A stretch of 37,640 nucleotides of DNA from a virus, in the IMG/VR virus record IMGVR_UViG_3300021256_000065; one strand, given 5' to 3'. Under the pieces are notes generated by a model. The model worked only from the letters and a program-made list of their open reading frames with translations, was not told the origin of the DNA and ran no database searches. Shown here in pieces: positions 2,868 through 36,568 of this stretch. Positions within the stretch are counted from its first letter, which is position 1. The number at the start of each line of letters is the position of its first letter. The position numbers were made by a program, and so were the translations under genes.

Positions 2868-2957
2868 ATGATTATTATTAAATGGAATAGAAATTATATT
2901 ATGGAATGGCTATGGTTTAAATTTGTCCCAAAAGATTATTGTGATGGAGCAAAATAA
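2868..2957 (+). CDS. tiny ORF (29 aa)
   Basis: Strong RBS AAAAGGAGG 8 nt upstream of ATG. Confidence 0.3.
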   Translation: MIIIKWNRNYIMEWLWFKFVPKDYCDGAK

Positions 2958-2967
2958 TTTTGCTCCA

Positions 2968-3155
2968 TCTTCCAGCGGGGCGCGAGCCTTCGGTTCGCGC
3001 CGAAATTTCCATTGTACCACACCCCGCACTTTTTGTCAAGCAAAATCTGCAAAAAAACTACACAAAATTATATCCCAAAATTAGTGCAACATTCCGATGT
3101 TGACTTTCTAAAAAACTTATATTATAATATGTTTACAAGGTAAGGGAAGGGCAAC
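2968..3155. repeat. 190-bp direct repeat unit A, copy 1
   Basis: Direct repeat of about 85 percent identity with 4045-4232. Each copy holds a GC hairpin, a TTGACT-17-TATAAT promoter and a conserved transcript start, with no ORF. Confidence 0.7.
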
Positions 3156-3243
3156 ACAATCGAGTAGGATGGTCGGCAGAGCCTAGCGCCTTCTGATTAT
3201 TTGAATAGACAGATAGCCACTTCAAAAAAAATAAAAAAACTTG

Positions 3244-3272
3244 TTGACAAATAAAAAATCTTATGTTATAAT
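3244..3272 (+). promoter_or_regulatory. sigma-70 consensus promoter; inverted repeat CTTATGT / ACATAAG flanks the -10
   Basis: TTGACA at 3244-3249 and TATAAT at 3267-3272. Confidence 0.6.
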
Positions 3273-3277
3273 AAGTA

Positions 3278-3440
3278 CATAAGATAAAGAAAGGATTGAT
3301 ACAGCTGATGAGACTTAGGATGTAAGCGTTGGGGCGCAAACGCTATGACATAAAAGAGGCGCAGGGGTAGATACGCGGACGCGGACAGAGTGAGAAAGGC
3401 GGTGGAATTGGCCACCCACCGCTCCCCGAAAAGTTTTTAA
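3278..3440 (+). ncRNA. candidate small RNA (no plausible ORF)
   Basis: Lies between a consensus promoter and the hairpin GCGGTGG..CCACCGC plus CCCCGAAAAGTTTTT. The only ATG gives a 5-aa ORF. Confidence 0.35.
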
Positions 3441-5547: not shown

Positions 5548-6261
5548 ATGAGCAATTATGTACTGATTATTGACACTGAAACCGCAAATTCTGTTGAACA
5601 GCCTATTCCCTATGATTTTGGATGGGCGGTTGTTGATACTATTACTGGAGAAATCATGGAAACCGCCTCTTATATGTGTGCGGAAATCTTCCTTGACAAA
5701 GAACTGATGTCACAAGCTTATTTTGCTGAAAAAATCCCGATGTATTGGGAAGAAATCAAACAAGGCAAACGTAAAATCACAAATCTTCTTACAATCCGTA
5801 AGGCACTCTGGAATTGTCTGAAAACTTATGATATTTCAGACATCGGCGCATACAATATGGGATTTGACAAGCGTGCTTGCAACAATGATATACGTTATGT
5901 GACAGCTTCCTTCCTGCGGTGGTTTTTCCCCTACAATGTTAGATTTTTCTGTATTTGGCACATGGCTTGCACAAGTTTTCTGAATACTTCAGATTATGTA
6001 AATTTTGCGACAACTCATGGTTTTGTGTCTGAAGCAGGAAATATTCAGACTTCTGCTGAATGCGCTTACCGCTATCTGAAAAATGACCCCTCTTTTGTGG
6101 AAAGTCACACAGGTCTGGAAGATGTGAGAATTGAAGCTGAAATCTTCATGAACTGTCTGAAAACAGGAGATGAAAACATGAAAGACTCAATTTACACCGC
6201 ATGTTGGAGAAATGTTCAGAAAATTGCTAAACAGATGATGCTTGAGGAAGTGTTCGCTTGA
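5548..6261 (+). CDS. DEDDh-family 3'-5' exonuclease (DnaQ/RNase T-like)
   Basis: LIIDTETAN (exo motif I) and HTGLEDVRIEAEIF (motif III, H...D). RBS AAAGAGAGG. Confidence 0.55.
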   Translation: MSNYVLIIDTETANSVEQPIPYDFGWAVVDTITGEIMETASYMCAEIFLDKELMSQAYFAEKIPMYWEEIKQGKRKITNLLTIRKALWNCLKTYDISDIGAYNMGFDKRACNNDIRYVTASFLRWFFPYNVRFFCIWHMACTSFLNTSDYVNFATTHGFVSEAGNIQTSAECAYRYLKNDPSFVESHTGLEDVRIEAEIFMNCLKTGDENMKDSIYTACWRNVQKIAKQMMLEEVFA

Positions 6262-6324
6262 ACACTTCCCCCAATTGTCTGAAAATTCGCGGGGCCCGGG
6301 CGCAAAAATTTTTTTCAAAACCGC

Positions 6325-6353
6325 TTGACAAAAAAGACCTTATTTGATATAAT
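6325..6353 (+). promoter_or_regulatory. sigma-70 consensus promoter
   Basis: TTGACA at 6325-6330 and TATAAT at 6348-6353. Confidence 0.6.
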
Positions 6354-6382
6354 TACATCATCAAGAGAAAGGAGATAAACAA

Positions 6383-6526
6383 ATGTACTTAGTAATTGCT
6401 GAAAACAAAACTGTAAGAACTTGTGACTCCTACAAAAAAGCCTATTGCACCATGGTTTGGCTTCGTTCTATCGCTAACCGCAAAGATGTTATCATTGTCA
6501 AAGATGGTAAAGTGTTAAGGGGGTAG
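6383..6526 (+). CDS. small protein (47 aa) ending in TAG; TAA lies 4 codons downstream
   Basis: RBS AGAGAAAGGAG. If TAG is read through, the protein gains 3 residues before TAA. Confidence 0.35.
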   Translation: MYLVIAENKTVRTCDSYKKAYCTMVWLRSIANRKDVIIVKDGKVLRG

Positions 6527-6530
6527 AAAA

Positions 6531-6728
6531 ATGGATAATGTCGTTCTTGAAATGTTGAGAGAATTGGCGGAGACTTCCGCAGAAGCCTACAAGAAAAATG
6601 CAAAAGCATTTTTTGATGATTACAAAAATTATGCGGATGCTTCTGATATCGCCTACATTTTTTCAAAGGCATTCCGTGATATGTTTTGGAACCTTGAAAA
6701 TGACATTAGAAAAGAAAGGAAATATTAA
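6531..6728 (+). CDS. hypothetical protein (65 aa)
   Basis: ORF with RBS AGGGGG. Confidence 0.45.
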   Translation: MDNVVLEMLRELAETSAEAYKKNAKAFFDDYKNYADASDIAYIFSKAFRDMFWNLENDIRKERKY

Positions 6729-6729
6729 A

Positions 6730-6918
6730 ATGTGGGAAGAAAATGCAAAATACGTTGAACAGGTTTATGGTTGTTATGTAGATTGGGAAGAAAGGTTTTA
6801 TGAATGTCCTGACTGTGGGGAGCCTGTCTATGAATGTGACTGGTCAAACGATGAATTGTGCGATTTCCTTTGCCCTATTTGTGAATTTAGAGAAGAAGAA
6901 GGAGAGGAAGATTTCTAA
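6730..6918 (+). CDS. small zinc-ribbon protein (CPDCG...CPIC)
   Basis: ATG after AAAGGAAATATTAAA. ORF ends TAA. Confidence 0.5.
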   Translation: MWEENAKYVEQVYGCYVDWEERFYECPDCGEPVYECDWSNDELCDFLCPICEFREEEGEEDF

Positions 6919-7073
6919 TGAATTGGGAAGAAAAAATTAAAGAAGGAATGAAACTTATTAAAGAAGGATGTTCAGAACAAACAGAATGGCGGAAATGCTA
7001 TGATTGCTCATTTAACACTTTCTGTGAACTTATGGAAGAAAATAATTATGAAGTTCCTAGTGAAGAATTTTAA
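6918..7073 (+). CDS. small Cys-containing protein (51 aa)
   Basis: ATG overlaps the upstream TAA (TAATG). Followed by a terminator. Confidence 0.4.
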   Translation: MNWEEKIKEGMKLIKEGCSEQTEWRKCYDCSFNTFCELMEENNYEVPSEEF

Positions 7074-7074
7074 A

Positions 7075-7100
7075 ATAAGGCGGAAACGCCTTATTTTTTA
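7075..7100 (+). terminator. rho-independent terminator
   Basis: TAAGGCGGAAACGCCTTA hairpin followed by a T-run. Confidence 0.6.
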
Positions 7101-7139
7101 TAATCATAATTAGATTAATCTAATTAAAATTAGTTAGGA

Positions 7140-7330
7140 AAATGCCGGGCCGCGGGCACTCGTGCCCAGGCCCGTTTCCCCCTCACGCGTACCATATGGA
7201 CTTTTTTTCTGGAACCTTGGCCTATATGGACCCGTCGCGTGGATTCCCGAAATGCGAACCCCGCATATGCATCTCCCTGCTGGAGCCCTACGCGTAACGC
7301 TGGTCATATGGCCGCGTTTCGTGGATCCTT
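7140..7330. other. GC-rich island with repeated CATATGG and ACGCGT motifs; function unknown
   Basis: About 60 percent GC in a genome of about 33 percent GC. Four (C/T)ATATGG-like repeats and two MluI-like palindromes. No credible ORF. Confidence 0.4.
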
Positions 7331-7334
7331 ACCT

Positions 7335-7362
7335 TGAAATCTTAAAAAATTTTTGTTATAAT
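7335..7362 (+). promoter_or_regulatory. promoter: TTGAAA plus extended -10 (TGtTATAAT), first of two tandem copies
   Basis: CTTGAAATCTTAAAAAATTTTTGTTATAAT. Confidence 0.5.
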
Positions 7363-7394
7363 ATTAAAAAAAGGCTTTGGGAATCCGCGCCCAC

Positions 7395-7423
7395 TTGAAA
7401 ACCTAAAAAATTTTTGTTATAAT
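7395..7423 (+). promoter_or_regulatory. promoter, second tandem copy
   Basis: CTTGAAAACCTAAAAAATTTTTGTTATAAT. Confidence 0.5.
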
Positions 7424-7457
7424 ATAATTACAATAAAAAACAAAAGGAGAAATACAT

Positions 7458-7892
7458 ATGGATCTATATGAAGCACTTAAAAATGGCATCAGCGCTGAAG
7501 AGCTAATTAAAACCTTTAATAATGATATGGAAGAAGCAAAGAAGCGGCTTGAACAAGAGAAAAAGAAAGAAAAGACTGAAGCTCGCAAAAAGAACAGAAC
7601 TAAATTTGCATCCGCCATCTCAGACTATTTGGCAGGTTGTCTTGACGAATCTTGCTACGCGTTACCGACGATTGCAGAGTTGGAAGAACTGCTTAAAGGA
7701 TTTGAAGAAGAAATGCAGGGGTCTATGGGTCTAATTGACGAACTGTCAAAAACTCTTGAAAATAATAATAAAAAGGAACCTGTTGGAGTAGAAATTAAAA
7801 CTTATTCAACAGATCCTAAGAACACATATAAGCGCAAAACTAATTATGATATTGATACCCAAATTCTTAATGCTTTTATTAAGGGGCTTTAA
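7458..7892 (+). CDS. hypothetical coiled-coil protein (144 aa)
   Basis: ORF with RBS AAAGGAGAAA. Confidence 0.55.
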   Translation: MDLYEALKNGISAEELIKTFNNDMEEAKKRLEQEKKKEKTEARKKNRTKFASAISDYLAGCLDESCYALPTIAELEELLKGFEEEMQGSMGLIDELSKTLENNNKKEPVGVEIKTYSTDPKNTYKRKTNYDIDTQILNAFIKGL

Positions 7893-7903
7893 TATTTTAA
7901 TTA

Positions 7904-7937
7904 CCAGATCTGGATTTTTATCCAGATCTTTTTTTTG
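7904..7937 (+). terminator. rho-independent terminator
   Basis: CCAGATCTGGA/TCCAGATCT hairpin followed by T8. Confidence 0.6.
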
Positions 7938-7989
7938 TTTACGGTCGCTTTTCAAAAGCATCTAATGTAATAGGATCTCTGATACGCGT

Positions 7990-8330
7990 TCCACCACCAC
8001 TGCCTATTTTTATCTATTTTTACTTATTTATTTCTATCTATATCTATTCAATCTATCTATTTATACTTATTTTGTCTATCTAGCCTTTATTTATACCTAT
8101 TTAATTTATTCATGTTTATTTATATTCATTTATACCCATTCTTGCTATTTTCTAACCTATTCCCATTTTAACTTATCTCTGCCTATTTATCCATTTCCGC
8201 CATTCATACTTATTTATATCTATCCCTAACTCTATTCTATCCTTCTTATCATTTATACCCATCTCTATTTGTCATTTAATCTATTCAGCTTATCTTACCC
8301 ATCTCATCCATCACCACTTTACTCATTTCT
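7990..8330. repeat. low-complexity, G-depleted plus strand with degenerate CTATTTAT, TCTATC and TTATAC repeats over about 340 bp
   Basis: The plus strand has almost no G. Short pyrimidine-rich motifs recur. Confidence 0.6.
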
Positions 8331-8589
8331 ACGTATCTCCCGCCGTCAATTCCTTAAACTTCTCCAGCGCTTTCCTGCTATTAAATATATTAAAATCTTC
8401 TCTAAACCACTCCAAACTATCATAGCTTAAACAAATTTTCTCCCCTATATCACTAATTAAAATCAACATAAATCCATCATTCAAAAATATTACCCTATCA
8501 ATAGCAAAGGGTTGATTATCTATCATTCCCAACTTATTACCTAATTTCTTTGCTTGTATATACTGCATGTTCATTCGCTCACAACTCAC
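8329..8589 (-). CDS. hypothetical protein (86 aa); terminal TAG, then 1 codon, then TGA
   Basis: ORF on the minus strand. Confidence 0.4.
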   Translation of the reverse strand: MSCERMNMQYIQAKKLGNKLGMIDNQPFAIDRVIFLNDGFMLILISDIGEKICLSYDSLEWFREDFNIFNSRKALEKFKELTAGDT

Positions 8590-8639
8590 GAAGCTTCGCT
8601 TCGTTCGTTAGTTCGCTCATTCACACCTCCTTACATTAT

Positions 8640-8775
8640 TATTACCATATATTATAATATTATATAACATTATTATATTATATATCATCACATTATTACA
8701 TTATTTTTATTATATTATACTACATTATTATATTACATATCTATATAATTATATCACTTATTATTTTTCTCACGA
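8640..8775. repeat. G-free A/T/C low-complexity ATTATTA-type repeats (possible DNA unwinding element)
   Basis: About 135 bp made only of A, T and C, with ATTATA and TTATTA reiterations. Confidence 0.5.
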
Positions 8776-9198
8776 AATTTTAAAATGAATTTTTATTTTG
8801 TTCCTCGCGGGACGGTGAAGCCTTCCTTTTTTAAAATCATTTTCCCCTAGTTTCCTTGTATCCTTTATTAAAAACGCGGCAATTTTATTACTCTACCCCA
8901 TCACCACATCATACCTCCCCCTTATTTTTAATGATTGTTAATAGTACTGCGATTTTCGTCTAATTTTTCACTTCGATTTTCGTTTTCCCCTCTGACCCTC
9001 ACTAACCGCAGAGTCCTTGCATTTGGTCTGGCGAAGCCAGACCAAATAAAACCTTTTATTATTTTCCCAATTTTTAATTATGCGACTAAAATTAGCAACT
9101 TTGGTAAAAATATATATAATATATATATCTTTACCAATCTTATTAAAACCTGTCGTTTAATTAAATTTTGGAAACTTTATCATATGCAAATTTTCAAA

Positions 9199-14009: not shown

Positions 14010-14259
14010 ACTAATCAAGATACTCCTGCCCTACATCCTGGGCGTGGTTTGTACAGCTATCATGTTCCGACCTATGAAGAACTGGCAGGAAGGCTATAAT
14101 GCCGCAAAACAGTTCTATGGTGATATGGAATCGGGCTTTGACCGAGGCTGGGAGACTGCAAAGAAGGTTTTTAAAGACTATGAAAAAGGCTTCGGCGATG
14201 GGTTTGAGGCAGGATGGATAACAGCGGAGGAACAAAAGAAACAAGATGAGCAAACTTGA
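14002..14259 (+). CDS. small membrane-anchored protein
   Basis: RBS GAGGGTGAACAAA. TM segment ILLPYILGVVCTAIMF. Confidence 0.45.
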   Translation: MIELIKILLPYILGVVCTAIMFRPMKNWQEGYNAAKQFYGDMESGFDRGWETAKKVFKDYEKGFGDGFEAGWITAEEQKKQDEQT

Positions 14260-14413
14260 CGACACAATTACAGATGTAGCTTATGTTCTTAACATCGTAG
14301 ATATGGCTTACATTCTTGATGCTCTTATGGCATACAGAAACATCATTCAAGCAGGGAACTGCAATGATTGTAAAGTGCAAAAAGAATGTGAGGTAAAACC
14401 AAAGTTGGGATAG
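14246..14413 (+). CDS. small protein ending in TAG; TAG read-through would extend it 19 codons to TGA
   Basis: ATG overlaps the upstream gene. Confidence 0.3.
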   Translation: MSKLDDTITDVAYVLNIVDMAYILDALMAYRNIIQAGNCNDCKVQKECEVKPKLG

Positions 14414-14537
14414 TTAGTTAGATACAACTGTCCATTTTACCATGGAGATGAATAGAATGAGACTAATTGATGCTACGTAGCATGATGCAATGTGGTGGTA
14501 AGAAGAAAGGTTGCGCTAAAGCGCAACTTTCTCCTAT

Positions 14538-14759
14538 TTGGAGGAAAATATGCAAAAAGAAGATGTTGTATGGCATGAAGAAGATGAGTCTATTGTAATG
14601 GAAGATGCGGATGGATGGAAATTAATTTGTATTATGAATCATTTTAAAGGCAAATTTCATTATGAAATTAAAACACCTGATAATTATTATCTTGATTATA
14701 CGAGCAATGATATATATGAAACGATTGAAAGATTAAATCAAGAGAAAAGAACCTACTAA
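14538..14759 (+). CDS. hypothetical protein (73 aa)
   Basis: ORF with RBS GGAGGAAAATATG. Confidence 0.5.
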   Translation: MEENMQKEDVVWHEEDESIVMEDADGWKLICIMNHFKGKFHYEIKTPDNYYLDYTSNDIYETIERLNQEKRTY

Positions 14760-20202: not shown

Positions 20203-20294
20203 TTATCTGGTTTAAAGAATTTCTTTTTGATTTTTTTAAAAAAATATTATATAATATTTATATGATAAAGATAGAAAAAGAAAGGAAATTGCAT

Positions 20295-21209
20295 ATGACA
20301 GAGATTATGATTGATGCACTTGATCTTGATGAAGATATGGAATTTGATCAAGAGAATGAAACAATTATAGAACAGCCTGATGCGGTTGTTACAAGTCCTG
20401 TAAAAATGTATTTACGAGAAATCGGCAAATATAATCTTCTGTCAAGAGAAGAAGAAATAGAACTAGCGGAAGCCGCCCTTAAAGGCGATAAGGAAGCGAA
20501 AGAAGCCCTTATCAATCACAATTTACGTTTGGTGGTTTCTGTTGCTAAACGCTATATGGGGCGAGGACTTACTCTTCTTGACCTGATTCAGGAAGGAAAT
20601 GTAGGTTTAATTAAGGCAGTTGATAAGTATGATGTGTCTAAGGGTTTTAAATTCTCTACATATGCTACCTATTGGATTAAGCAGGCAATTTCTCGTGCAG
20701 TAATGGATCAGACTAGAAATATTCGTATTCCTGCCCATATCATTGAGATGATGAGTAATATTAAAAAGACTGAACGTGAATTTCAGCAGATTCATGGGCG
20801 TGAGCCTAAAGAAGCTGAAGTTGCGGCTGCTCTTGATATTGAAGTTAAAAAAGTTAAGGAAGTATATGCCTGGATGAAGGATACTACTTCTCTTGATATT
20901 ATAGTCGGCGATGATGAAGATATTACGGTTGGCTCTTTTATTGAAGATGAGTCTGCAGTTCCTGCTTTTGCGGCAATCGAAGAAAATGATCGCACTATCG
21001 CGATTAAAAATATCCTTGATACTTTGAATGATCGTGAAAAAATGGTTATTGTACGGCGGTTTGGTATTGGTCTTGATAGAGCCGAAACTCTTGATGAGAT
21101 TGGTAAGGAACTTGGACTTAGCAGAGAGCGCATTCGTCAGATTGAAGCAGCTGCGCTTAGAAAGTTGCGGAATCCTCGTCGTGCTAATCTGCTTAAAGAA
21201 TTTTTCTAA
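20295..21209 (+). CDS. RNA polymerase sigma-70 family factor (RpoD-like regions 1.2 to 4)
   Basis: YLREIG (1.2). [18 protein letters not shown] and [12 protein letters not shown] (region 2). A region-4 [30 protein letters not shown]. Confidence 0.85.
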
Positions 21210-23179: not shown

Positions 23180-23253
23180 GCGGCAATAGTGGAGTGGTTT
23201 AACACAGCGGTCTCTAAAACCGCGGATCCTGGGTTCGAATCCCAGTTGCCGTA
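23180..23253 (+). tRNA. amber suppressor tRNA (anticodon CTA, reads UAG)
   Basis: Canonical 74-nt cloverleaf. Acceptor GCGGCAA/TTGCCGT with G1-U72. D-loop AGTGGTTTA. Anticodon stem GCGGT/ACCGC with 7-nt loop CTCTAAA, anticodon at 23214-23216. T-arm CTGGG-TTCGAAT-CCCAG. Discriminator A. Confidence 0.85.
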
Positions 23254-23740: not shown

Positions 23741-23762
23741 TAAAATCACTTACAGCAAAAAT

Positions 23763-23835
23763 TGTTCAGTAGTCAAAAGGTTAAGACATTAATTTTTAAG
23801 ATTAAGTAATGCTGGTTCGATTCCAGCCTGAGTTG
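23763..23835 (+). tRNA. tRNA-like gene with anticodon TTA (ochre-suppressor-like); functionality doubtful
   Basis: Canonical T-arm GCTGG-TTCGATT-CCAGC. Anticodon stem TTAAT/ATTAA with loop TTTTAAG. Acceptor has a 1-72 U-U mismatch. TAA clearly terminates genes in this window. Confidence 0.35.
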
Positions 23836-23849
23836 AGTGATTTGTTTTT

Positions 23850-25077: not shown

Positions 25078-25304
25078 ATTAAGGAGTGGTCTGGCAATAC
25101 CTCTATTATCATAGTGCAGATATGCATAAGTAATAACTTCAGATGAGTTATTACAAAAAGGCAGACCTTAGTATACAAAGACTCCAATATGAATATACGA
25201 AAACTCTGATTGGAAGTCAGTCACGGTTGATATATCGTGCAATGAAAACTGGTTTGCTAATGAGCATTAAAGTGCGGTCGAAGGCCAAGACTGCCGCCAG
25301 TCAT

Positions 25305-25394
25305 CGGAACGTAGCTCAATGGTAGAGCTTTGACGGTAAACAACAAGGGGTTCGTCACCTACTTGTGATGCACGTTCGAATCGTGCCGTTCCAA
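25305..25394 (+). tRNA. tRNA-like gene with C1xA72 mismatch and about 18 extra nt; anticodon unresolved
   Basis: Perfect D-arm GCTC-AATGGTA-GAGC and T-arm GCACG-TTCGAAT-CGTGC. Internal stem ACAAG/CTTGT with a 14-nt loop. Confidence 0.4.
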
Positions 25395-25509
25395 CGGCTG
25401 CCGAGAGCAAACGATCCGCTTGCAGGGAAGTTACCATAGAGTAGAGCTTCAGAAGAGTGCGGGATGAGCGGTTGGTGGAAACCTGAACCACCATTATAGA
25501 ATTTAGCAT

Positions 25510-25615
25510 TATGTGGTGGCGGAATAGGTAGACGCAGTGAGCGCCAAGCGGACATTGATTGTAGGGTAAGACCTGAGAGTCTTTGTCATGTAAGGTGCAA
25601 ATCCTTACCCACATA
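25510..25615 (+). tRNA. tRNA-like structured RNA, paralog 2
   Basis: See 24962-25077. Confidence 0.45.
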
Positions 25616-25674
25616 ATAAGCTGTATGGCTTACCATAGGGGGTCATAGCTCAGTTGGGAGAGCGCATCCCTTGC

Positions 25675-26152
25675 TTGAAAAACTTATATTTTTAAAATAT
25701 TATGGAAACTAAACAACTTGGAAATTTAACTTAGTTACAATGTATTACTCGTTTTTATGAATTAGGATATTCAGTATCAATACCTTATGGAGATAGTGAA
25801 AAATATGATATGATACTTGATATTAATGGAAAATTATATAAACTTCAAGCAAAACATGCTAAAGAATTTTATACAGAAGATAATCAATTATCATATATAA
25901 AGATAAAAACTTCTTGGCAATCTGGATATACTAAACAAAGTCAATATCATACAAATAAGTATTCTAAAAATGAAATTGATTTTTTTGTTACATACTTTCA
26001 AGGTAAAAATTATTTAATTCCAGTAGAAGAATGCTCAACTGAAAAAATATTAAGAATTTTACCTCCAAAAAATGGACAAATAAAAGGAATATCTTTTTTA
26101 GAAAACTATATTGATGAGGAGGTTATTAAAAAATTATAAGTATTATCAGGTA
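25675..26152 (+). mobile_element. intervening sequence in tRNA-Ala carrying a nuclease ORF (intron or homing-element candidate)
   Basis: Lies between the two tRNA halves and contains the ORF 25702/25810-26139. Confidence 0.5.
25702..26139 (+). CDS. PD-(D/E)XK / Hjc-like nuclease (homing-endonuclease candidate); the longer form needs TAG read-through
   Basis: ELGYSVSIPYGDSEKYDMILDINGKLYKLQAK fits an E...D...(D/E)xK nuclease core. The ATG at 25702 is in frame with the 25810 ORF through one TAG. Confidence 0.4.
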
Positions 26153-26330
26153 AAGGATGAGGTCGAGAGTTCGATTCTCTCTGGCTCCACCATTGCGGCA
26201 TCTGGAACTATGTATTTAGTTTTAACCACGCCAAAAGCAAGAAGGATTGGATTCGCGAATACAGATGAGACTTCTTGTAAAGACCCTCTGGCTTGATAGT
26301 TACTTCGAGAAGTATAGGAACTATCAATAG

Positions 26331-26406
26331 ACTCGATTAACTCAGCTGGGAGAGTGCGACTCTTACAAAGTCGAAGTCGTTGGTTCGAGTCCAACATCGA
26401 GTACCA
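26331..26406 (+). tRNA. tRNA-Val (anticodon TAC), CCA encoded
   Basis: ACTCGAT/ATCGAGT acceptor. Loop CTTACAA. T-arm GTTGG-TTCGAGT-CCAAC. Confidence 0.75.
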
Positions 26407-26530
26407 TCTGCGGGGCCGGCGTATAAATGGTCCCACCACCTGACTCGTAGTGAACACGGAACGCTGAAAGGTCTTGGGGAACTCCAGGGTAAGATACTCT
26501 GCAAGGGGAGGTTGTGCTCCCTACTTTTAA

Positions 26531-26602
26531 CGGGGCGTAGCGTAGCGGTTACGCGCTAGTTTTGGGAACTAGATTAGGCAGGTCCGACTCCTGTCGCCCC
26601 GA
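26531..26602 (+). tRNA. tRNA-Pro (anticodon TGG)
   Basis: C1-G72 and A73. Anticodon arm CTAGT-TTTGGGA-ACTAG. Confidence 0.65.
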
Positions 26603-26952
26603 TTGTATTTCAAAACCTGACGTTTAGCTTATTATAAAAATAAGTTTCGTACTATTAATAACAGAGATAGGAATTAAATAAACGTAAACCCATTGTAGCC
26701 CCCGACACGGAAACAATAAGAATAGAAGTTATTTGAAATGATATATAATAACTCTCGAAAAAAGTAGGTTAGCAATACTGAAAATTTTCTTGGATACAGA
26801 TAGGGAAATCGCAATGAAATGTCCAATAGTTGAAGGTCTATTGGAAGAACACTATAGTGTTTTAAAGTTTAGGTGTTCACGATATAACTTTTGGTAGGGT
26901 GATATAATGGATGGTTGGCCCCTAAATCTTTTAAAGCAAAGGAGTGTTTTTT

Positions 26953-30461: not shown

Positions 30462-30491
30462 TAACAATGGAGAAAAAAGGAGAATTAAAAA

Positions 30492-32369
30492 ATGGCATTG
30501 ATGTTAAACACTTTATATCCACCTATTATGATGGATGTAATCCCTGGTTTTATAAGAACATCAACATGTAGAATATATTTTTCTATATCCGATTATAATT
30601 CTGCCAAAGACATAGCAAATGTTCAAGTTGCATTAACAAATGTAAAAACTAACACTTCTGCATTGAATACTGATTTGTACCCCGCAGAAATTAAATTAAC
30701 TGAATTACTTTATGATGACCAAAAGTAGGACGATTATTGTTATTATATAACAATAAGTCCTGCTGATTTAGCGGGCGGGGAATTTTTATTAAATCAATAT
30801 TATAAAATTCAATTACGCTTTACATCAAAAGATGCAGATAGTGTTAGTTTAACTGGAGTTCAACAAATTGCTACTTGGTTAAATAATAATCTTATGTTCT
30901 TTTCTTAGTGGTCACGTGCGGGAATCATTAGAGGGATTTCAAGACCAACGCTTTATATTGATTATTTAGATGATGAGGATGAAGAAGAGGAAGAAGAAAG
31001 TGAAAATATTTCATTATCCGCCCCATTATCAAAAATTACTGGTAGATTAACTTTTGCAGATGAAGGCGAATTAGACTATTTAGCTTCTTATAATGTTAAA
31101 GTTTATTTAAGTAAGCAAGATAATAAATTAATTTTTGATAGTGGTATTCAACATCCAATAGAAGAAAATGAGATTGATTGTAACTTATTATGTGATTTAT
31201 AGGATTAGCGGCTGTATATGATAAAAATTAGTTATACTACAAACTATGCTTATAGTAAATAGGAAAACTATATAATACAAGTGCGAGTCGAGAGCCAAGA
31301 CTTAAATCCATTCAATCTAACAATCACTCCAACAAGAAATGAAGAGGATGGTTATATAAATCTTCATATTACGATGGATAAAACTAAAGATTTTTCTGAT
31401 AAACAATTATTAATTAGAAGAATATCTTCAAAAGATAATTTCTTAATATGGGAAAATTTATATGCTATAGATTAGAGCTTTTCCACATTTGATTGGCAAG
31501 ACTTATCTGTAGAAAGCGGGATTTGGTATAAATATGCGTTATATGTAGTAGATTTAAATAAAACTATTTTATATAACCCTATAGAAACAGATCCAATATT
31601 GTGCATTTTTGAAGATATATTTTTAGTAAGTGATAATATTCAATTAAGATTACAATTTAATCCTTCCATAACAAGTTTTAAATATAATACAACTGAATCT
31701 CAACAAGTTACTTTAGGAGGAAAATTTCCTTATATTAGAAGAAATGGAAATAATTATTATAGAACCTTTTCTATTGGCGGTCTTATTAGTTCTTTAATGG
31801 ATGAAACTGATTGGTATGATTCTTATATTCATCCGCCGCATCCAATATAGGGAGAAGAAGAACAGGAAGAAGAAGAAATCACTTTACCACATATCAGATT
31901 TACTTCTAAATAGGATAAATATAAAGATTCTTATGATTTATATCAACAATATGAATCAGATAAAAATATTTCTAATTATCTTAATCCAATATATGAAAGA
32001 TTCTTTAGAGAAACTGTATATGATTTCTTTTATAAAAATAGTGTAAAATTATTTAAATCTCCAACAGAAGGTAATATATTAGTTAAATTAACCAATATTA
32101 ATTTTGAGCCTCAAGCTCAATTAGGACGCGTATTATATTCATTTACCGCAACCACAGTTTAGATAGATGAACCAACTTTTGAAAATTATAAAAAATATAA
32201 AATCTTTCCTGATGATATATTTGAATATGTTACTGAATCTCCTGCTTTAGAGATCGAATTTGGTACAGCCACAATGGTGCTGGTTATAAATGCAAATGGT
32301 GCAAGTCAAAATGGAAATCAGAATTGGGCATTGCATTTAGAGCCTTATCCTATTAAAGGAGGAGGTTAA
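30492..32369 (+). CDS. large virion structural protein (tail or baseplate-like, about 625 aa) with about 9 in-frame TAG
   Basis: RBS AAAAAGGAGAA. The ORF fragments 30492, 31281 and 31599 share one frame and are separated only by TAG. Ends TAA at 32367-32369. Confidence 0.55.
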
Positions 32370-32371
32370 TA

Positions 32372-34396
32372 ATGCAAACATATCCATATTTAAATGATTT
32401 AGCTTTTTTAAGAGAACTTGATCTATCAAAAGTAAAAGAACAATTTGTGAGAATTAACGTTTTGTCTTTTAAAGATGAAAAACCAATAGAACAAATTGAA
32501 GGAGATGTGGTAAGCGGCAATATTACAATAGATGGAAATTCAGCGATGCGGCGAACCGCAAATTTATCTATTGTGGTAAAAAAAGATGAATATTCTAATA
32601 GAGATATTAGAAAAATTTTAACTATAAATAAAAAAGTATAGTTATTAATAGGATTTACTAATACAACTAATAAATATGAACAATATCCAATTTTATGGTT
32701 CCCGCAAGGAATTTATGTAATTATTACTCCTAATATTATTTATAATAATAATGGTATCAATATTTCATTGACATTACATGATAAAATGGCCTTGCTAAAT
32801 GGGGAATGCGGCGGAACTCTACCTGCATCTATTACATTTACTGAAATAGAAGATGTTGATGAGAATGGCGAAAGACAAATTTCTAATCCTACTATATATC
32901 AAATTGTACAAGAATTAGTTAATCATTTTGGCGGATAGCAGCTTGGAAAAATAATTATTGAACTTGATAAAAAAATAAAAAAGGTAATGCGGTGGACAGG
33001 TTCAACGCCGCTTTACCTATATCAAGAAGCACTTCCAGACGGTACAATGTATAGTAGTTTTAGTACAAATGAAAATTAGTTAAGAAGGCAAGGAGAAGGG
33101 ACAATTCAAGAATTTTAGTACGGATAGGATATAGGTTACGTTTTGACTGATTTTATCTATCCACAATAGCTAACTAATAACCCTGGAGAGACCATTGTAA
33201 GTGTCTTAGACAAAATTAAGAATTGGCTTGGAAATTACGAATATTTTTATGATATTAATGGTAATTTCAGATTCCAAGAGATAAAGAATTATTTGAATAA
33301 AACATATGCAACATTTTTAATTAATGAAATAAATTCAAATAATTACTTAACTAATTATGCAAATGGAAAATCTGTTTATACTTTTGAAGATTCTGATATT
33401 ATTCAATCATATTCAAATTCCCCGCAATATCAACAAATAAAAAATGATTTTGTTGTTTGGGGTAAAAGAACTACAACAGAAGGAAAATAGATTCCTATTC
33501 GTTATCATTTAGCTATTGATAAAAAGCCTGCAGTCGGGAATTAGTATAAAGTATTTTTCTATACTGATCCCGATGATAACATTTTAAAAGCTAAAAGACC
33601 TTTAGAATTTGCTACAAGAAATTAGTTTCCAGAAACCGGAGATGTATGTCAATATTATTATGCGGCAGACACTGGTTTTATATATAAATGGGACGCGAGT
33701 GTACAAAATTATGCCACAACCCCATATATAATTGAAACAATAGAAGCAAAAGATTATAGGACTTAGCTCTATATGTCTGGTGTTGCTAGTTAGCCGTTTG
33801 GTTTAGATAGTAATTATTATTACACAGAATTAAAAAATGAATGGCCTAAACTATATGATATGCGGCAAGGAAAATTCTTTGATGAAATACTAGATCAGCC
33901 TAGTAACATGGATTTCTTTTTAGATTTTATAGATACTTCTACCGCTATTTCAGAATTTAGCATAGAAAATATTGGTAGACGTACCCTTACAATATCAAAT
34001 GATGCAATAAATTGTATTTTTTAGCCTGATAACCCTGATATAGTTATTATTGAAGCAAACAGCGAAGGCGCGGATGATCTTCGAGAATAGTGTTAGCATA
34101 GACGACAAGAATATTCTCAAGTAACATCAGACATTTATTCACAGCTAGTTACTGGCGGAGTTTTAAGATCTGCTTATGAAGAAATAAGAACAGAACTCTA
34201 TCAATATACTGATTATAATGAACAAGTTACATTAACTACTTTACCAATTTATTATCTTGAACCTAATGTACGGATAACAATTAAAAATTAGTAGAGCGGA
34301 ATTGATGGAGATTACATGATAAAAACAATTTCATTACCATTAGATGTTAATGGAATGATGAATTTATCTTGTACAAAAGCACTTGAAAGAATTTAA
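32372..34396 (+). CDS. large virion structural protein (about 675 aa) with more than 12 in-frame TAG, including a tandem TAG TAG
   Basis: RBS AAAGGAGGAGG. Fragments 32372 and 33293 are in frame. Ends TAA near 34394. Confidence 0.5.
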
Positions 34397-34399
34397 CAA

Positions 34400-34446
34400 A
34401 AAAAAATAATGGCGATGATATTTTTATATCATCGCCATTTTTTTAT
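34400..34446. terminator. bidirectional rho-independent terminator between convergent genes
   Basis: 13-bp stem AATGGCGATGATA/TATCATCGCCATT with A-run and T-run flanks. Confidence 0.65.
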
Positions 34447-36470
34447 GGTTTTAATCGGATAATATATCCAACTTTATAGTTAGGCCACGAAAGTGGACCA
34501 ATCCATTTTACAAAGTGAGCACCTTCACCTTTTTCTTTGCAGAAGGCATGTCCAGAATCAAATGACAAACCATTACCAAAGTAAATACATGTATGATTGA
34601 TAGTTACAAAAGTAAGAATGTCACCAGGGCAAAGTTTTCCTTCATTCATAAGCTGCTTAGGAGTTTTATTACCTACTTTAATTAAGTCTGCATACTTGCG
34701 GAGATCAGCCTACGCGTGACTATTTAACCAGCGGATGCCGCCTCCTTTTTGCCCATACCAGCTACATGCGGATGCGGGAAGTCCAGACTATTTCATTGCA
34801 AAACCAACGCCGCCCATGCAATTTGTATATAGTTTATTAGCTTTTCTTGTTTTCCAGAATGTACTTTCACTTACATGTCCACTGTTGTAATATCTCCAGT
34901 CCTTACCAGCTTTTATGTCGTCTACTAACCATTGATTTAACCGAGCACATGCCGCAAGTAATTTTTGCACTCTATTTAATTTTGGTTTATATACAACTGT
35001 TTTTGGATTTTTTAAATCATAAACTCTAAATCCCCAATTTTGATTAGCCTTGTTTTTAGCATTACTTAAGTATTGATAAGCACCAAGTTGATATTGAGAT
35101 TCAGACCATCTTCTACGAACAACATATCTATCTATTGGTGTTGCGGCGGGAGTCATTGTTACGGGCGCTTGGACTGGTGCCGCAACCGCTTTCACCTATG
35201 GATAAATTTGATTACCATTCTAATCATATGCTTTTAACCCTTTAGCTTTTGCTCTTGCTATTGCGTTAGCTTTAATTTCATAAGCATTATCCTGATTAAT
35301 ATATTTTCCATTTTTATAGTCTTGTGCAACTCTATACCAGACAGTTTTTGGCTGCGGGACTGGTGCCATCGCCCCCGCTTCTACATCTAATTTTGCTAAA
35401 TTATTTTCTTTTATAATACGAAGTACCTTCTCTTCATAATTAGGATCAGTGCAATATCCCTATGGATTGCTAGCTGTCCCAGTTCCAATTCTAATTGCAT
35501 GAATAACCGCCCCAGGATCTGTCATACCTTTGACGCGATTATATTTATAACCTTTATTATTTTTTACATGTAAAAGAAACATCTAATAATCTTCAATACA
35601 GTTTTTATAGTCTTTATAAACTCTAAAATTATCAGGCTTATGAATTAATTTACCATTAACATATTCAGGAGTTATCTTAGAAAAAACAGTGCCATCCCAA
35701 ACTGTATAATTAGACCAGCTGCCATTGATTAAATCAGCTTTCATTCCAAGAAGATTATTTCGTTTTGTTAATTCAATAGCATCAGATCCCAATCCATAAC
35801 CATTCTAGAGGCAGCACTGTGCGGCGACCACTGATGGTAAAATTTTTGTTTGTTTATAAAGATCTACACAAATTTTAGATACTTTATTAATAAAATCTTC
35901 TTTGCTTTGAGGAATACCAGAAGCTGCGGTTGTTGACGGTGTTGTACCTGCGTTTCCGCCCTTCACCCTCTCAAGAAATTCATTCCAAGTCCAAGATGTT
36001 TTATATTTATTATTATGAACATATGGAGCTGGGCAGACTTTATTTACAATATCATAATGTCTTAATACATGGTCTATTGGGATTTTTAAGTCCTTCATTA
36101 ATTTTTGGACAAGCCATACTGCGGCTTCTTGTGTTTCTTTTGTAAAATACCAATATGGATCACTTGCTAGTCCTTTGTTACCATCACAGTGACAACATAA
36201 TTCAATGCTAATTGTATTAGCATTTCTTGCGTATGGATGCTTTTGAGCATATATGCCAGCAGTACCAACTGCCCACACAATTGCATCATGGGAGCATCTT
36301 TGGAAAATTGTTCCATCCCAATAAATTGTATAGTGGGCACCAGTACCATTTTTTGATAATTCATAATTTTGACCATCTACTCCTAAATAGTGAATGGCTA
36401 TATATTCATGTGTATTTCCAAATTTTGGCACATATACTTCTGAAATTTTATTTACTATTTTATATGCCAT
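34443..36470 (-). CDS. multidomain endolysin: N-acetylmuramoyl-L-alanine amidase (Amidase_2/PGRP), linker, NlpC/P60 or CHAP-like peptidase; 3 in-frame TAG
   Basis: RBS GGAGAAAAAAT before the ATG at 36470. HYLGVDGQ...AHYTIYWDGTIFQ...NANTISIELC are amidase_2 motifs. C-terminal GDILTF...HTCIYFGNG...DSGHA. Four ORF fragments share one frame, split by TAG at 35805, 35583 and 34788. Ends TAA at 34443. Confidence 0.65.
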
Positions 36471-36484
36471 ATTTTTTCTCCAAT

Positions 36485-36504
36485 GGGCGGGGCAAACCCC
36501 GCCT
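36485..36504 (-). other. GC hairpin between esterase and endolysin genes (attenuator or stability element)
   Basis: GGGCGGGG-CAAA-CCCCGCC. No U-run. Confidence 0.3.
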
Positions 36505-36568
36505 AAAAGGACCATCCTGAAGGACGGTCCTGGTTATTAATTGTCTAAATGAATTTTTAAGATATTTA

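Follow-up and report, generated by a model that had tools for sequence, protein, structure and literature searches.

A tRNA-Ala gene split between nucleotides 36 and 37

The stretch of viral DNA analysed here, 37,640 nt of the record IMGVR_UViG_3300021256_000065 (hereafter the window; the contig measures ~134 kb), carries within its tRNA array a tRNA-Ala(UGC) gene at positions 25639–26192. The gene is cut between nucleotides 36 and 37 by a 478-nt insert. An earlier note, made from the sequence of the window alone, had described a tRNA-Ala(TGC) interrupted in its anticodon loop; its coordinates and its 478-bp gap are both exact, and the spliced form is indeed called as tRNA-Ala(tgc). The 5′ exon (25639–25674) reads GGGGTCA TA GCTC AGTTGGGA GAGC G CATCC CTTGC and comprises the 5′ strand of the acceptor stem, the D arm, the anticodon-stem strand CATCC and the loop CUUGC with the anticodon UGC. 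The 3′ exon (26153–26192) reads AA GGATG AGGTC GAGAG TTCGATT CTCTC TGGCTCC A CCA, comprising A37 and A38, the stem strand GGATG, the variable loop, the T arm, the 3′ strand of the acceptor stem (with U70), A73 and CCA.

The pairing across the gap that the note had pointed out can be read in the sequence: the acceptor stem pairs, including G3–T70, and so does the anticodon stem (CATCC at 25665–69 with GGATG at 26155–59). All four stems (acceptor, D, anticodon and T) are paired, A73 is present and CCA is encoded. The insert is AT-rich, with ~27% GC against ~48% in the surrounding tRNA region. As a putative intron it begins with UUGAUAGACUUA and ends with GCAUUGUCGGGUA.

Neither ARAGORN with default settings nor the Rfam tRNA model calls the split gene. 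When long introns are allowed, ARAGORN places a tRNA at exactly 25639–26192 with an intron of 478 nt and gives the anticodon as tta; once C36 is joined to A37, it calls tRNA-Ala(tgc). The spliced sequence has the features expected of a functional tRNA, namely the cloverleaf, G3–U70, A73, U33 and the conserved bases of the D and T loops. Its loop, CUUGCAA, is that of the intact phage tRNA-Ala genes at two related loci (L126 and L128), and joining at 36/37 elsewhere in the family also gives CUUACAA, the loop of the intact tRNA-Val in the window.

More than one cut point would yield a 7-nt loop. The register chosen by ARAGORN gives the anticodon UUA, with U as the last base of the 5′ exon and G as that of the intron. 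It fits group I rules, but was rejected on two grounds: the triplet in the 5′ exon goes with the type of tRNA body (Ala, Val or Gly), and joining at 36/37 reproduces the loops of intact genes. Across 36 split genes, bodies with G3–U70 carry the triplet TGC, tRNA-Val-like bodies TAC and the tRNA-Gly body GCC, and the joined sequence is called as a tRNA of the expected type in 36/36. In intron mode ARAGORN gives the window gene, like most of its family, the label ‘tRNA-Stop(tta)’; a survey of recoded phages could count such genes wrongly as ochre suppressors. For annotation this means that split genes are missed by standard tRNA finders or given the wrong anticodon.

An I-Ssp6803I-family endonuclease in a TAG-recoded phage

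The insert is almost wholly an open reading frame (ORF; 25702–26139), with a non-coding remainder of 27 nt upstream and 13 nt downstream. The predicted protein matches PF11645 (PDDEXK_5) over its full length (residues 1–136 of 145, E = 3.7e-23) and PDB 2OST (I-Ssp6803I; E = 1.6e-6), and also matches PHROG 5018. An alignment of 38 relatives shows D36, Q49, K51 and H52 to be invariant and E11 nearly so, giving the catalytic motif E11...D36...Q49-x-K51, the same as in I-Ssp6803I. The earlier suggestion of an I-Ssp6803I-like nuclease is upheld by PF11645 and 2OST; the E...D...ExK motif that came with it is not, the protein having QxK instead. By sequence, the ORF is a PD-(D/E)XK homing endonuclease of the I-Ssp6803I family, for which DNA cleavage is predicted. 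A large protein collection holds 473 relatives (protein clusters), most above 60% identity. The element had been thought unusual; these close clusters show it to be common in rumen and gut phage metagenomes.

Codon 11 of the ORF is an in-frame TAG, presumably read as sense through a tRNA(CUA) encoded by the phage. A 97%-identical copy at L164 has the identical TAG, and other family members bear TAGs at other codons. A special read-through of this codon had been proposed, a claim that does not hold: three late-gene ORFs (30489–32366, 32357–34393 and 34446–36533, of 626, 679 and 696 codons) contain 9, 16 and 7 in-frame TAGs, respectively. These long ORFs need TAG as sense and the tRNA(CUA) is encoded, as in a TAG-recoded (code 15-like) phage. 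Since TAG is recoded genome-wide, the TAG in the endonuclease gene is ordinary, and the tRNA(CUA) is needed for translating both it and the TAG-rich late genes. For another recoded phage, it has been proposed that an in-frame stop could hold back the making of an endonuclease until the suppressor tRNA is present (Borges et al., 10.1101/2021.08.26.457843); by analogy, the same delay may apply to the window element. The array that holds the tRNA(CUA) also contains a second suppressor-type tRNA, with anticodon UUA, at 23762–23836. It would read TAA, and treating TAA as sense gives no obvious lengthening of real genes in the window.

A mobile family of precise tRNA insertions

Scans based on protein alignment found relatives in IMG/VR (3 contigs), metagenomes (35 loci) and species-representative genomes (4 loci), and further loci came from contig look-ups (L126–L128, L168 and L169). 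Precise 36/37 splits make up 36 of the ~45 loci: 26 in tRNA-Ala(UGC), 9 in tRNA-Val(UAC) and 1 in tRNA-Gly(GCC). The same junction is used in all three tRNA types, and joining restores a normal 7-nt loop in each.

An assembly chimera, or an ORF flanked by chance by two tRNA fragments with no relation to each other, would also go uncalled by standard tRNA finders, as the split gene does. The 35 further loci with the same arrangement speak against chance. The identical architecture recurs in 36 independent contigs from many samples and assemblers, the loop is restored exactly, base for base, and pairing across the gap is compensatory. The chance that the gene is an artefact is negligible, and we regard this explanation as already effectively refuted.

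The insert is far more conserved than its flanks, a pattern in line with the mobility foreseen for a homing element. Introns are 88–98% identical between loci on unrelated phage backbones, and intron and exon divergence are weakly correlated (rho 0.17, Ala genes). Between the window and L164 the introns are 97.9% identical and the anticodon stems are the same, while compensatory changes set the D, T and acceptor stems apart; this pattern is the signature of homing with co-conversion. The reverse is seen in L129 and L146, where the exons are nearly identical and the introns only 75% identical, which points, from the sequences, to separate invasions. The uninterrupted tRNA-Ala genes that had been proposed as a check in related phages exist in L126, L128 and L149. 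Conservation far above that of the flanks, presence/absence polymorphism and co-conversion of exon sequence are all observed, and together these sequence patterns show a cassette that moves horizontally by active homing, with recent insertions.

A blastn search of 25200–26700 against GenBank phages gave no match. The exact spliced junction GCGCATCCCTTGCAAGGATGAGGTC, searched in IMG/VR contigs (DNA only), revealed no intron-less twin of this allele, and an IMG/VR scan with the DNA pattern GAGCGNNNNNCTTGCTTGA was discarded, its matches being almost all due to chance. No derivative lacking the homing endonuclease gene (HEG) was found among the family loci examined.

A conserved rod in the precursor RNA

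The ends of the insert pair with each other and with the anticodon loop to form a rod. We aligned 33 distinct junctions, taking bases 27–36 with the first 8 intron nucleotides, and the last 11 intron nucleotides with bases 37–43. Above the anticodon stem, the order is a C32 × A38 mismatch, U33–A37, 34/−1, 35/−2, 36/−3 and then i1–i7 with −4 to −10 (i, intron positions from the 5′ end; negative numbers, from the 3′ end). In the 33 sequences, 90.6% of the cells in this helix are paired, against 26–48% when the partner is slid by 1–3 columns, and double changes occur in 14/17 pairs; both counts are inflated, as the structure was derived from the same sequences. RNAalifold, run on longer mini-precursors, recovers the same helices independently, with 17/28 predicted pairs showing compensatory changes. 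It also adds a second helix, in which i9–i17 pair with the last codons of the ORF, including the stop codon. Compensation in helix 2 is seen, for example, as CUUACAAGG/CCUUGUAAG in L002, and CTTA becomes CTCA or CTCG where the stop codon is TGA rather than TAA. Between this stop codon and the 3′ junction there are 13 nt, a spacing shared by nearly all relatives.

Folding of the whole 554-nt precursor with RNAfold yields a cloverleaf whose anticodon arm is lengthened into a long helix (−111.4 kcal/mol; z = −3.2 against shuffles). Rod helix 1 appears in this minimum-free-energy fold, and the ORF forms the terminal loop of the rod. Because many of the pairs are G–U, the rod is selected in the sense-strand RNA. 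Covariation among the family sequences shows this rod to be a conserved feature of the precursor RNA.

The last three intron bases track the anticodon: GUA goes with UGC and with UAC, and GGC with GCC (L161). CAU goes with GUG in an unrelated insert, located in the phage of L131, where a tRNA-His(GUG) gene (L131, 176–683) is split at 36/37 by 433 nt encoding an HNH endonuclease with several in-frame TAGs; the same array also holds a tRNA-Ala split by a PDDEXK_5 insert. Adherence of an unrelated HNH family to the same junction rule suggests a constraint common to endonuclease families and a general pathway.

The two splice sites, 25674/25675 and 26152/26153, lie inside one helix, on opposite strands and 3 bp apart. 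In this structural model, cuts at both junctions would leave 3-nt 3′ tails. The coordinates of the exons, insert, helices and coding features are collected in Table 1.

Table 1. Features of the split tRNA-Ala locus and the tRNA(CUA) gene of the same array
Feature	Position	Strand	Basis or remark
5′ exon of tRNA-Ala(UGC), nucleotides 1–36	25639..25674	+	Sequence; ARAGORN intron mode; spliced form is tRNA-Ala(tgc)
Rod helix 1, 5′ strand: U33 U34 G35 C36 with i1–i7 (UUGAAAA)	25671..25681	+	Covariation
Insert (putative intron) between tRNA positions 36/37, 478 nt	25675..26152	+	Restored loop CUUGCAA
Helix 2, 5′ strand: ACUUAUA	25682..25688	+	Pairs with 26135–26141; compensatory changes
Homing endonuclease ORF (predicted), 145 codons and TAA, I-Ssp6803I family (PF11645)	25702..26139	+	Pfam; PDB 2OST; alignment
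In-frame TAG, codon 11	25732..25734	+	Aligns with the E11 column of the family and Q12 of I-Ssp6803I
Helix 2, 3′ strand: UAUAAGU	26135..26141	+	Includes the ORF stop TAA (26137–26139)
Rod helix 1, 3′ strand: intron −10 to −1 (UUAUCAGGUA) with A37	26143..26153	+	Covariation
3′ exon of tRNA-Ala, nucleotides 37–76	26153..26192	+	Sequence; ARAGORN; spliced form called
Suppressor-type tRNA(CUA), same array	23180..23253	+	ARAGORN and Rfam tRNA

The insert departs from known intron classes

Rfam models for introns of groups I and II gave no match at E ≤ 10 in 25200–26700 and none at E ≤ 0.5 in 12 related loci. Across the family, the non-coding portion amounts to 22–33 nt before the ORF and, in nearly all copies, 13 nt after it. 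The earlier note had seen little room for a group I core, and the ~40 non-coding nt of the window insert agree: there is no catalytic core (P3–P9) and too little structured RNA, where at least ~180 nt would be wanted. A ribozyme hidden inside the ORF was also considered and ruled out. Synonymous-site identity is flat along the ORF (0.45–0.69 in 9-codon windows), with no window of raised conservation, so that no RNA core is concealed in the coding sequence. Nor is there a shared flanking ribozyme, because the sequence outside the tRNA is unrelated between loci. The ends depart from the group I rule as well: the 5′ exon ends in C36, not U, in all Ala, Val and Gly genes, and the last intron base is A in most copies, G in 2 and C in 1, with no omega-G. 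For group II, there is no Rfam match (domain V), and the ORF encodes a PD-(D/E)XK nuclease, not a reverse transcriptase.

These observations bear on the idea that the insert self-splices after all, through a cryptic, highly reduced group I-like core or a novel small ribozyme that would combine the ~40 non-coding nt with coding sequence or with a trans-acting RNA. In favour of this, the closest relative, I-Ssp6803I, belongs to a genuine group I intron of a tRNA; helices 1 and 2 are separated by a conserved unpaired A (i8) and a CA/A loop; and group I introns are known to insert at 36/37 of bacterial tRNAs (PMC13011429). However, group I introns of bacterial tRNAs measure 184–894 nt, all HEG-bearing ones exceeding 500 nt and ORF-less ones having at least 184 nt (PMC13011429), against 40 non-coding nt here. 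The Rfam negatives in the window and 12 relatives, the terminal bases of exon and intron, the lack of omega-G, the ORF free of synonymous constraint and the unconserved flanking RNA all speak against a ribozyme. We consider one very unlikely.

The archaeal bulge-helix-bulge (BHB) class fits no better. Both junctions lie within a continuous covarying helix, not in 3-nt bulges around a 4-bp helix. BHB registers at 37/38 and 36/37 were tried by hand with an alternative 4-bp helix, C32–G35 with −6 to −3, and rejected; this helix fits the window but fails in L156 and others. No EndA-type splicing endonuclease was found among the ORFs of the window (37.6 kb of the ~134-kb contig). The virus is not archaeal, because the markers of its host are those of bacteria: the tRNA array includes a sigma-70 gene, and the lysin has Amidase_2 and Glucosaminidase domains. 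The sigma-70 family gene (20262–21206) is full length, with regions 1.2, 2, 3 and 4, and is located between tRNA-Ile and tRNA-Asn. Related contigs are binned with Ruminococcus, Acutalibacteraceae and Eubacteriales (metagenome-assembled genome bins of Firmicutes). The insert is neither a group I, nor a group II, nor an archaeal BHB intron.

A promoter-like element at 25675–25703 (TTGAAA-17-TATTAT) was judged coincidental, because its TTGA is part of the covarying helix and its −10 hexamer overlaps the ATG.

Restoration of the tRNA or a selfish cassette

The reading that we prefer, and hold tentatively, is protein-dependent excision at the two helix-embedded sites followed by ligation. In the mechanism we propose, the endonuclease would be made only once the phage's own tRNA(CUA) reads the TAG. 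It would then cut the anticodon region of intact tRNA-Ala genes in co-infecting phages, and repair would copy the cassette in, with co-conversion of the anticodon stem. In the RNA, the precursor ends would be processed like those of a tRNA, a structure-specific endonuclease would cut both strands of the rod, after C36 and before A37, and an RNA ligase would close the anticodon loop, as in T4-type anticodon-loop repair. The expected spliced junction is ...GCGCAUCCCUUGC/AAGGAUGAGGUC... (CUUGC/AAGGAUG). The cutting nuclease could come from the host or the phage, or be the PD-(D/E)XK protein of the intron itself.

The state of the exons and the fit of the intron ends speak for restoration. In the 26 split tRNA-Ala genes, 98.9% of stem cells are paired, and G3–U70 and A73 are present in 26/26. 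The split gene is the sole tRNA-Ala in the 17-tRNA array of the window and in the 23-tRNA array of L168; in L126, where an intact tRNA-Ala adjoins the cassette, the outer parts of the exons are lost. The intron end is fitted to several anticodons while the exons are still intact, and one junction rule holds across two unrelated endonuclease families. In L128 and L149, the endonuclease gene is free-standing beside an intact tRNA-Ala and has no rod, showing that the gene needs no surrounding tRNA. Genes of the RNA end-healing type also lie beside the split tRNA-Ala of L169, which encodes a 314-residue protein joining a P-loop kinase (AAA_33) to an HD phosphohydrolase (7926–8870) and a HAD_SAK_2 (‘Swiss Army Knife RNA repair’) protein (14130–14633). 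Elsewhere on the same contig, a gene at 5913–7856 is interrupted by an intein/LAGLIDADG element.

Several points weigh against splicing. We know of no bacterial or phage protein that excises tRNA introns, and no gene for an RNA ligase, RtcB, an EndA-like enzyme or RNase III was found among the ORFs of the window. The insertions are recent, so the intact exons need not reflect selection after insertion, and exon integrity is weakened as proof of such selection. The cassette also occurs outside complete tRNAs. In L126, the cassette, rod and a mimic of the anticodon stem persist 67 nt after an intact tRNA-Ala, the other tRNA parts being gone. In L160 (473–1107), a tRNA-Phe(GAA) gene is apparently split after its complete anticodon loop by 558 nt, consisting of a PDDEXK_5 cassette that has a rod of its own (ATTTCTTATCA / TGATAAGAAAT) and, immediately after it, a complete tRNA-Val(UAC), whose CCA end abuts base 39 of the 3′ half of tRNA-Phe. 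The rod is kept in these two loci where no tRNA can form, and it therefore serves the cassette itself; with the rod-less copies of L128 and L149, they make the cassette independent of tRNA splicing. Lastly, the predicted 3-nt stagger misfits RNase III.

Two host enzymes were considered as the nuclease and set aside. Cuts by RNase III leave 2 nt, and a 2-nt stagger here would yield a loop of 6 or 8 nt. Excision by RNase P and RNase Z, by analogy with nested tRNAs and with helix 1 having 7 bp like an acceptor stem, was rejected because nothing resembles a T arm and a cut following the ‘discriminator’ would miss the junction by 2 nt. The intron's own enzyme is a speculative candidate. The rod from 27 to 36 reproduces the DNA target almost base for base. 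I-Ssp6803I leaves 3-nt 3′ overhangs; if the phage enzyme cuts alike around position 35, its cuts in DNA would, speculatively, coincide with the junctions in RNA.

The main rival reading is an unspliced selfish cassette, an endonuclease gene that invades a dispensable phage tRNA gene and destroys it, so that no mature tRNA-Ala is made. The rod would then serve the cassette, perhaps as a site of processing (by a double-strand RNase, for example), as a tRNA-like scaffold that confers stability or as an element controlling translation of the endonuclease mRNA, and the perfect exons would only reflect how recent each insertion is. The high identity of introns on unrelated backbones and the weak correlation of exon with intron divergence agree with this, as do the persistence of rod-bearing cassettes without a complete tRNA, the mismatched anticodon stem in L155, the free-standing relatives next to intact tRNA-Ala genes and the failure to find splicing enzymes in the window. 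It accounts poorly for the precision of the insertions in 36 of ~45 loci, in tRNAs otherwise perfect and with all identity elements, or for an intron end fitted to three or four anticodons with the exons intact. Nor would it lead one to expect the split gene as the sole tRNA-Ala in large phage tRNA sets, or a scaffold that free-standing copies do without. Moreover, a drive that inactivates the conserved gene it targets ought to run short of targets. We rate a purely selfish, unspliced cassette as possible but somewhat doubtful.

Returning to protein-dependent splicing, we put forward, a shade more cautiously than the excision itself, that this would be the first such tRNA splicing in the bacterial world, with a continuous helix rather than a bulge-helix-bulge as substrate. 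The PD-(D/E)XK enzyme of the intron itself might do the cutting, on RNA that imitates its DNA target, and an RNA-repair ligase might reseal the exons.

Other elements of the tRNA arrays

The arrays contain further unusual elements. A tRNA-like gene at 25305–25395 of the window scores 42 bits with the Rfam tRNA model. Its acceptor stem, D arm and T arm are normal, apart from a C1 × A72 mismatch, and 36 nt (stem TGACG/CGTCA, 17-nt loop) replace the 17-nt anticodon arm; ARAGORN assigns it no anticodon. An uncalled element of ~105 nt at 25508–25612 has a D arm resembling that of tRNA-Leu (GTGGCGGAATAGGTAGACGC), a T arm (TAAGG TGCAAAT CCTTA) and an acceptor stem that pairs; it exceeds the size of a class II tRNA by ~15–18 nt and shows no clear anticodon loop. 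The non-coding spacers between tRNAs at 25396–25507, 26193–26330 and 26407–26530 are GC-rich (~48%, against 30–35% in the rest of the genome) and have no Rfam match. They could, by analogy, be processing elements like the hepatitis delta virus (HDV)-like theta ribozymes that adjoin tRNAs in recoded gut phages (PMC10879173).

Related contigs hold ORF-less insertions as well. In L168 (7179–7342), a tRNA carries an anticodon-loop insert of ~88 nt with its own 7-bp terminal stem (GGTTGAA/TTCAGCC), a T-arm-like ATGAG TTCAAAT CTCAT and ACCA, a tRNA-like unit nested in a tRNA that recalls those of Lak phages; its excision by RNase P and RNase Z followed by ligation is conceivable. Shorter ORF-less anticodon-loop insertions of 13–70 nt were found with ARAGORN in intron mode in L147 (1995–2136), L148 (282–424), L151 (2710–2830) and L168 (2779–2864). 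The 13-nt hairpin of L168 pairs in the register of the large introns (35/−2, 36/−3, i1/−4), and the insertions of L147, L148 and L151 have no clear fit to the junction rule. L127 contains a ROOL RNA (218 bits, 2933–3438), ~1 kb downstream of its split tRNA-Ala, and the arrays of L129 (132–245) and L127 (2473–2557) give weak YrlA (Y RNA-like) matches that fall short of the gathering score.

Discussion

To our knowledge, all known bacterial tRNA introns are self-splicing ribozymes of group I or, rarely, group II. The insert described here belongs to a large family, not remarked on before, of insertions at 36/37 of phage tRNA genes that carry an endonuclease gene but no ribozyme. A full-text literature search, incomplete in its coverage, found no prior description of this family. 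All phage introns known by 2014 lay in protein-coding genes (PMC3984707), and the ‘enigmatic’ introns of Lak megaphages are the only later report of phage tRNA introns that we found (10.1101/356790). Stand-alone PDDEXK_5 genes have been counted in Jug phages (10.1101/2025.08.10.669567). Given its exact junction rule, a precursor structure backed by covariation and no ribozyme, the family now poses a testable puzzle: whether tRNAs are spliced by proteins in bacteria or phages and, if so, by which nuclease and ligase. Protein-dependent splicing, if true, would be categorically new for bacteria and their viruses. If the inserts are instead unspliced, they would be a clear example of an endonuclease that, much like a gene drive, spreads through the destruction of phage tRNA genes.

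Two known arrangements share single traits with the family. Intervening sequences of rRNA, which are excised by RNase III without religation, likewise sit in a structural RNA, and their ends pair into a long helix, a fitting substrate for a double-strand RNase. Fragmented 23S rRNA works, however, whereas a tRNA cut in its anticodon loop cannot work without ligation, and the stagger is 2 nt there and a predicted 3 nt here. T4 segB is a free-standing homing endonuclease gene in a phage tRNA cluster; genes of this type are also selfish endonucleases associated with phage tRNA clusters, an arrangement matched by L128 and L149, but they lie beside their target, whereas the window gene lies inside it.

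The Lak introns also interrupt anticodon loops in stop-recoded gut phages, belong to no Rfam class and have no known splicing mechanism (Devoto et al., 10.1101/356790). They differ in being reported without an endonuclease gene, some of them with tRNA-like sequence, and in having Prevotella hosts; a conserved junction structure is not reported (10.1101/356790).

The nearest analogue in design is the archaeal HEG-bearing BHB intron, cut by EndA and joined by RtcB. Both elements combine an endonuclease ORF with short pairing ends that bring the splice sites together, in both the anticodon pairs with the intron, and splicing of the window element would likewise depend on protein. In the archaeal introns, however, the sites are 3-nt bulges separated by 4 bp and the endonuclease is of the LAGLIDADG type, whereas here they lie 3 bp apart in a continuous helix, the enzyme is of the PD-(D/E)XK type and the host is bacterial.

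The nearest relative is the I-Ssp6803I group I intron in the tRNA-fMet gene of the cyanobacterium Synechocystis. The two share the endonuclease family (PF11645, 2OST), a tRNA host gene interrupted in its anticodon loop and, presumably, a target in the pseudo-palindromic DNA of the anticodon stem-loop, which I-Ssp6803I reads as a tetramer (PMC3384342). The Synechocystis intron is a self-splicing group I ribozyme inserted at 33/34 (PMC13011429), whereas the window element has no ribozyme, sits at 36/37 in a phage tRNA array and carries a recoded TAG in its ORF.

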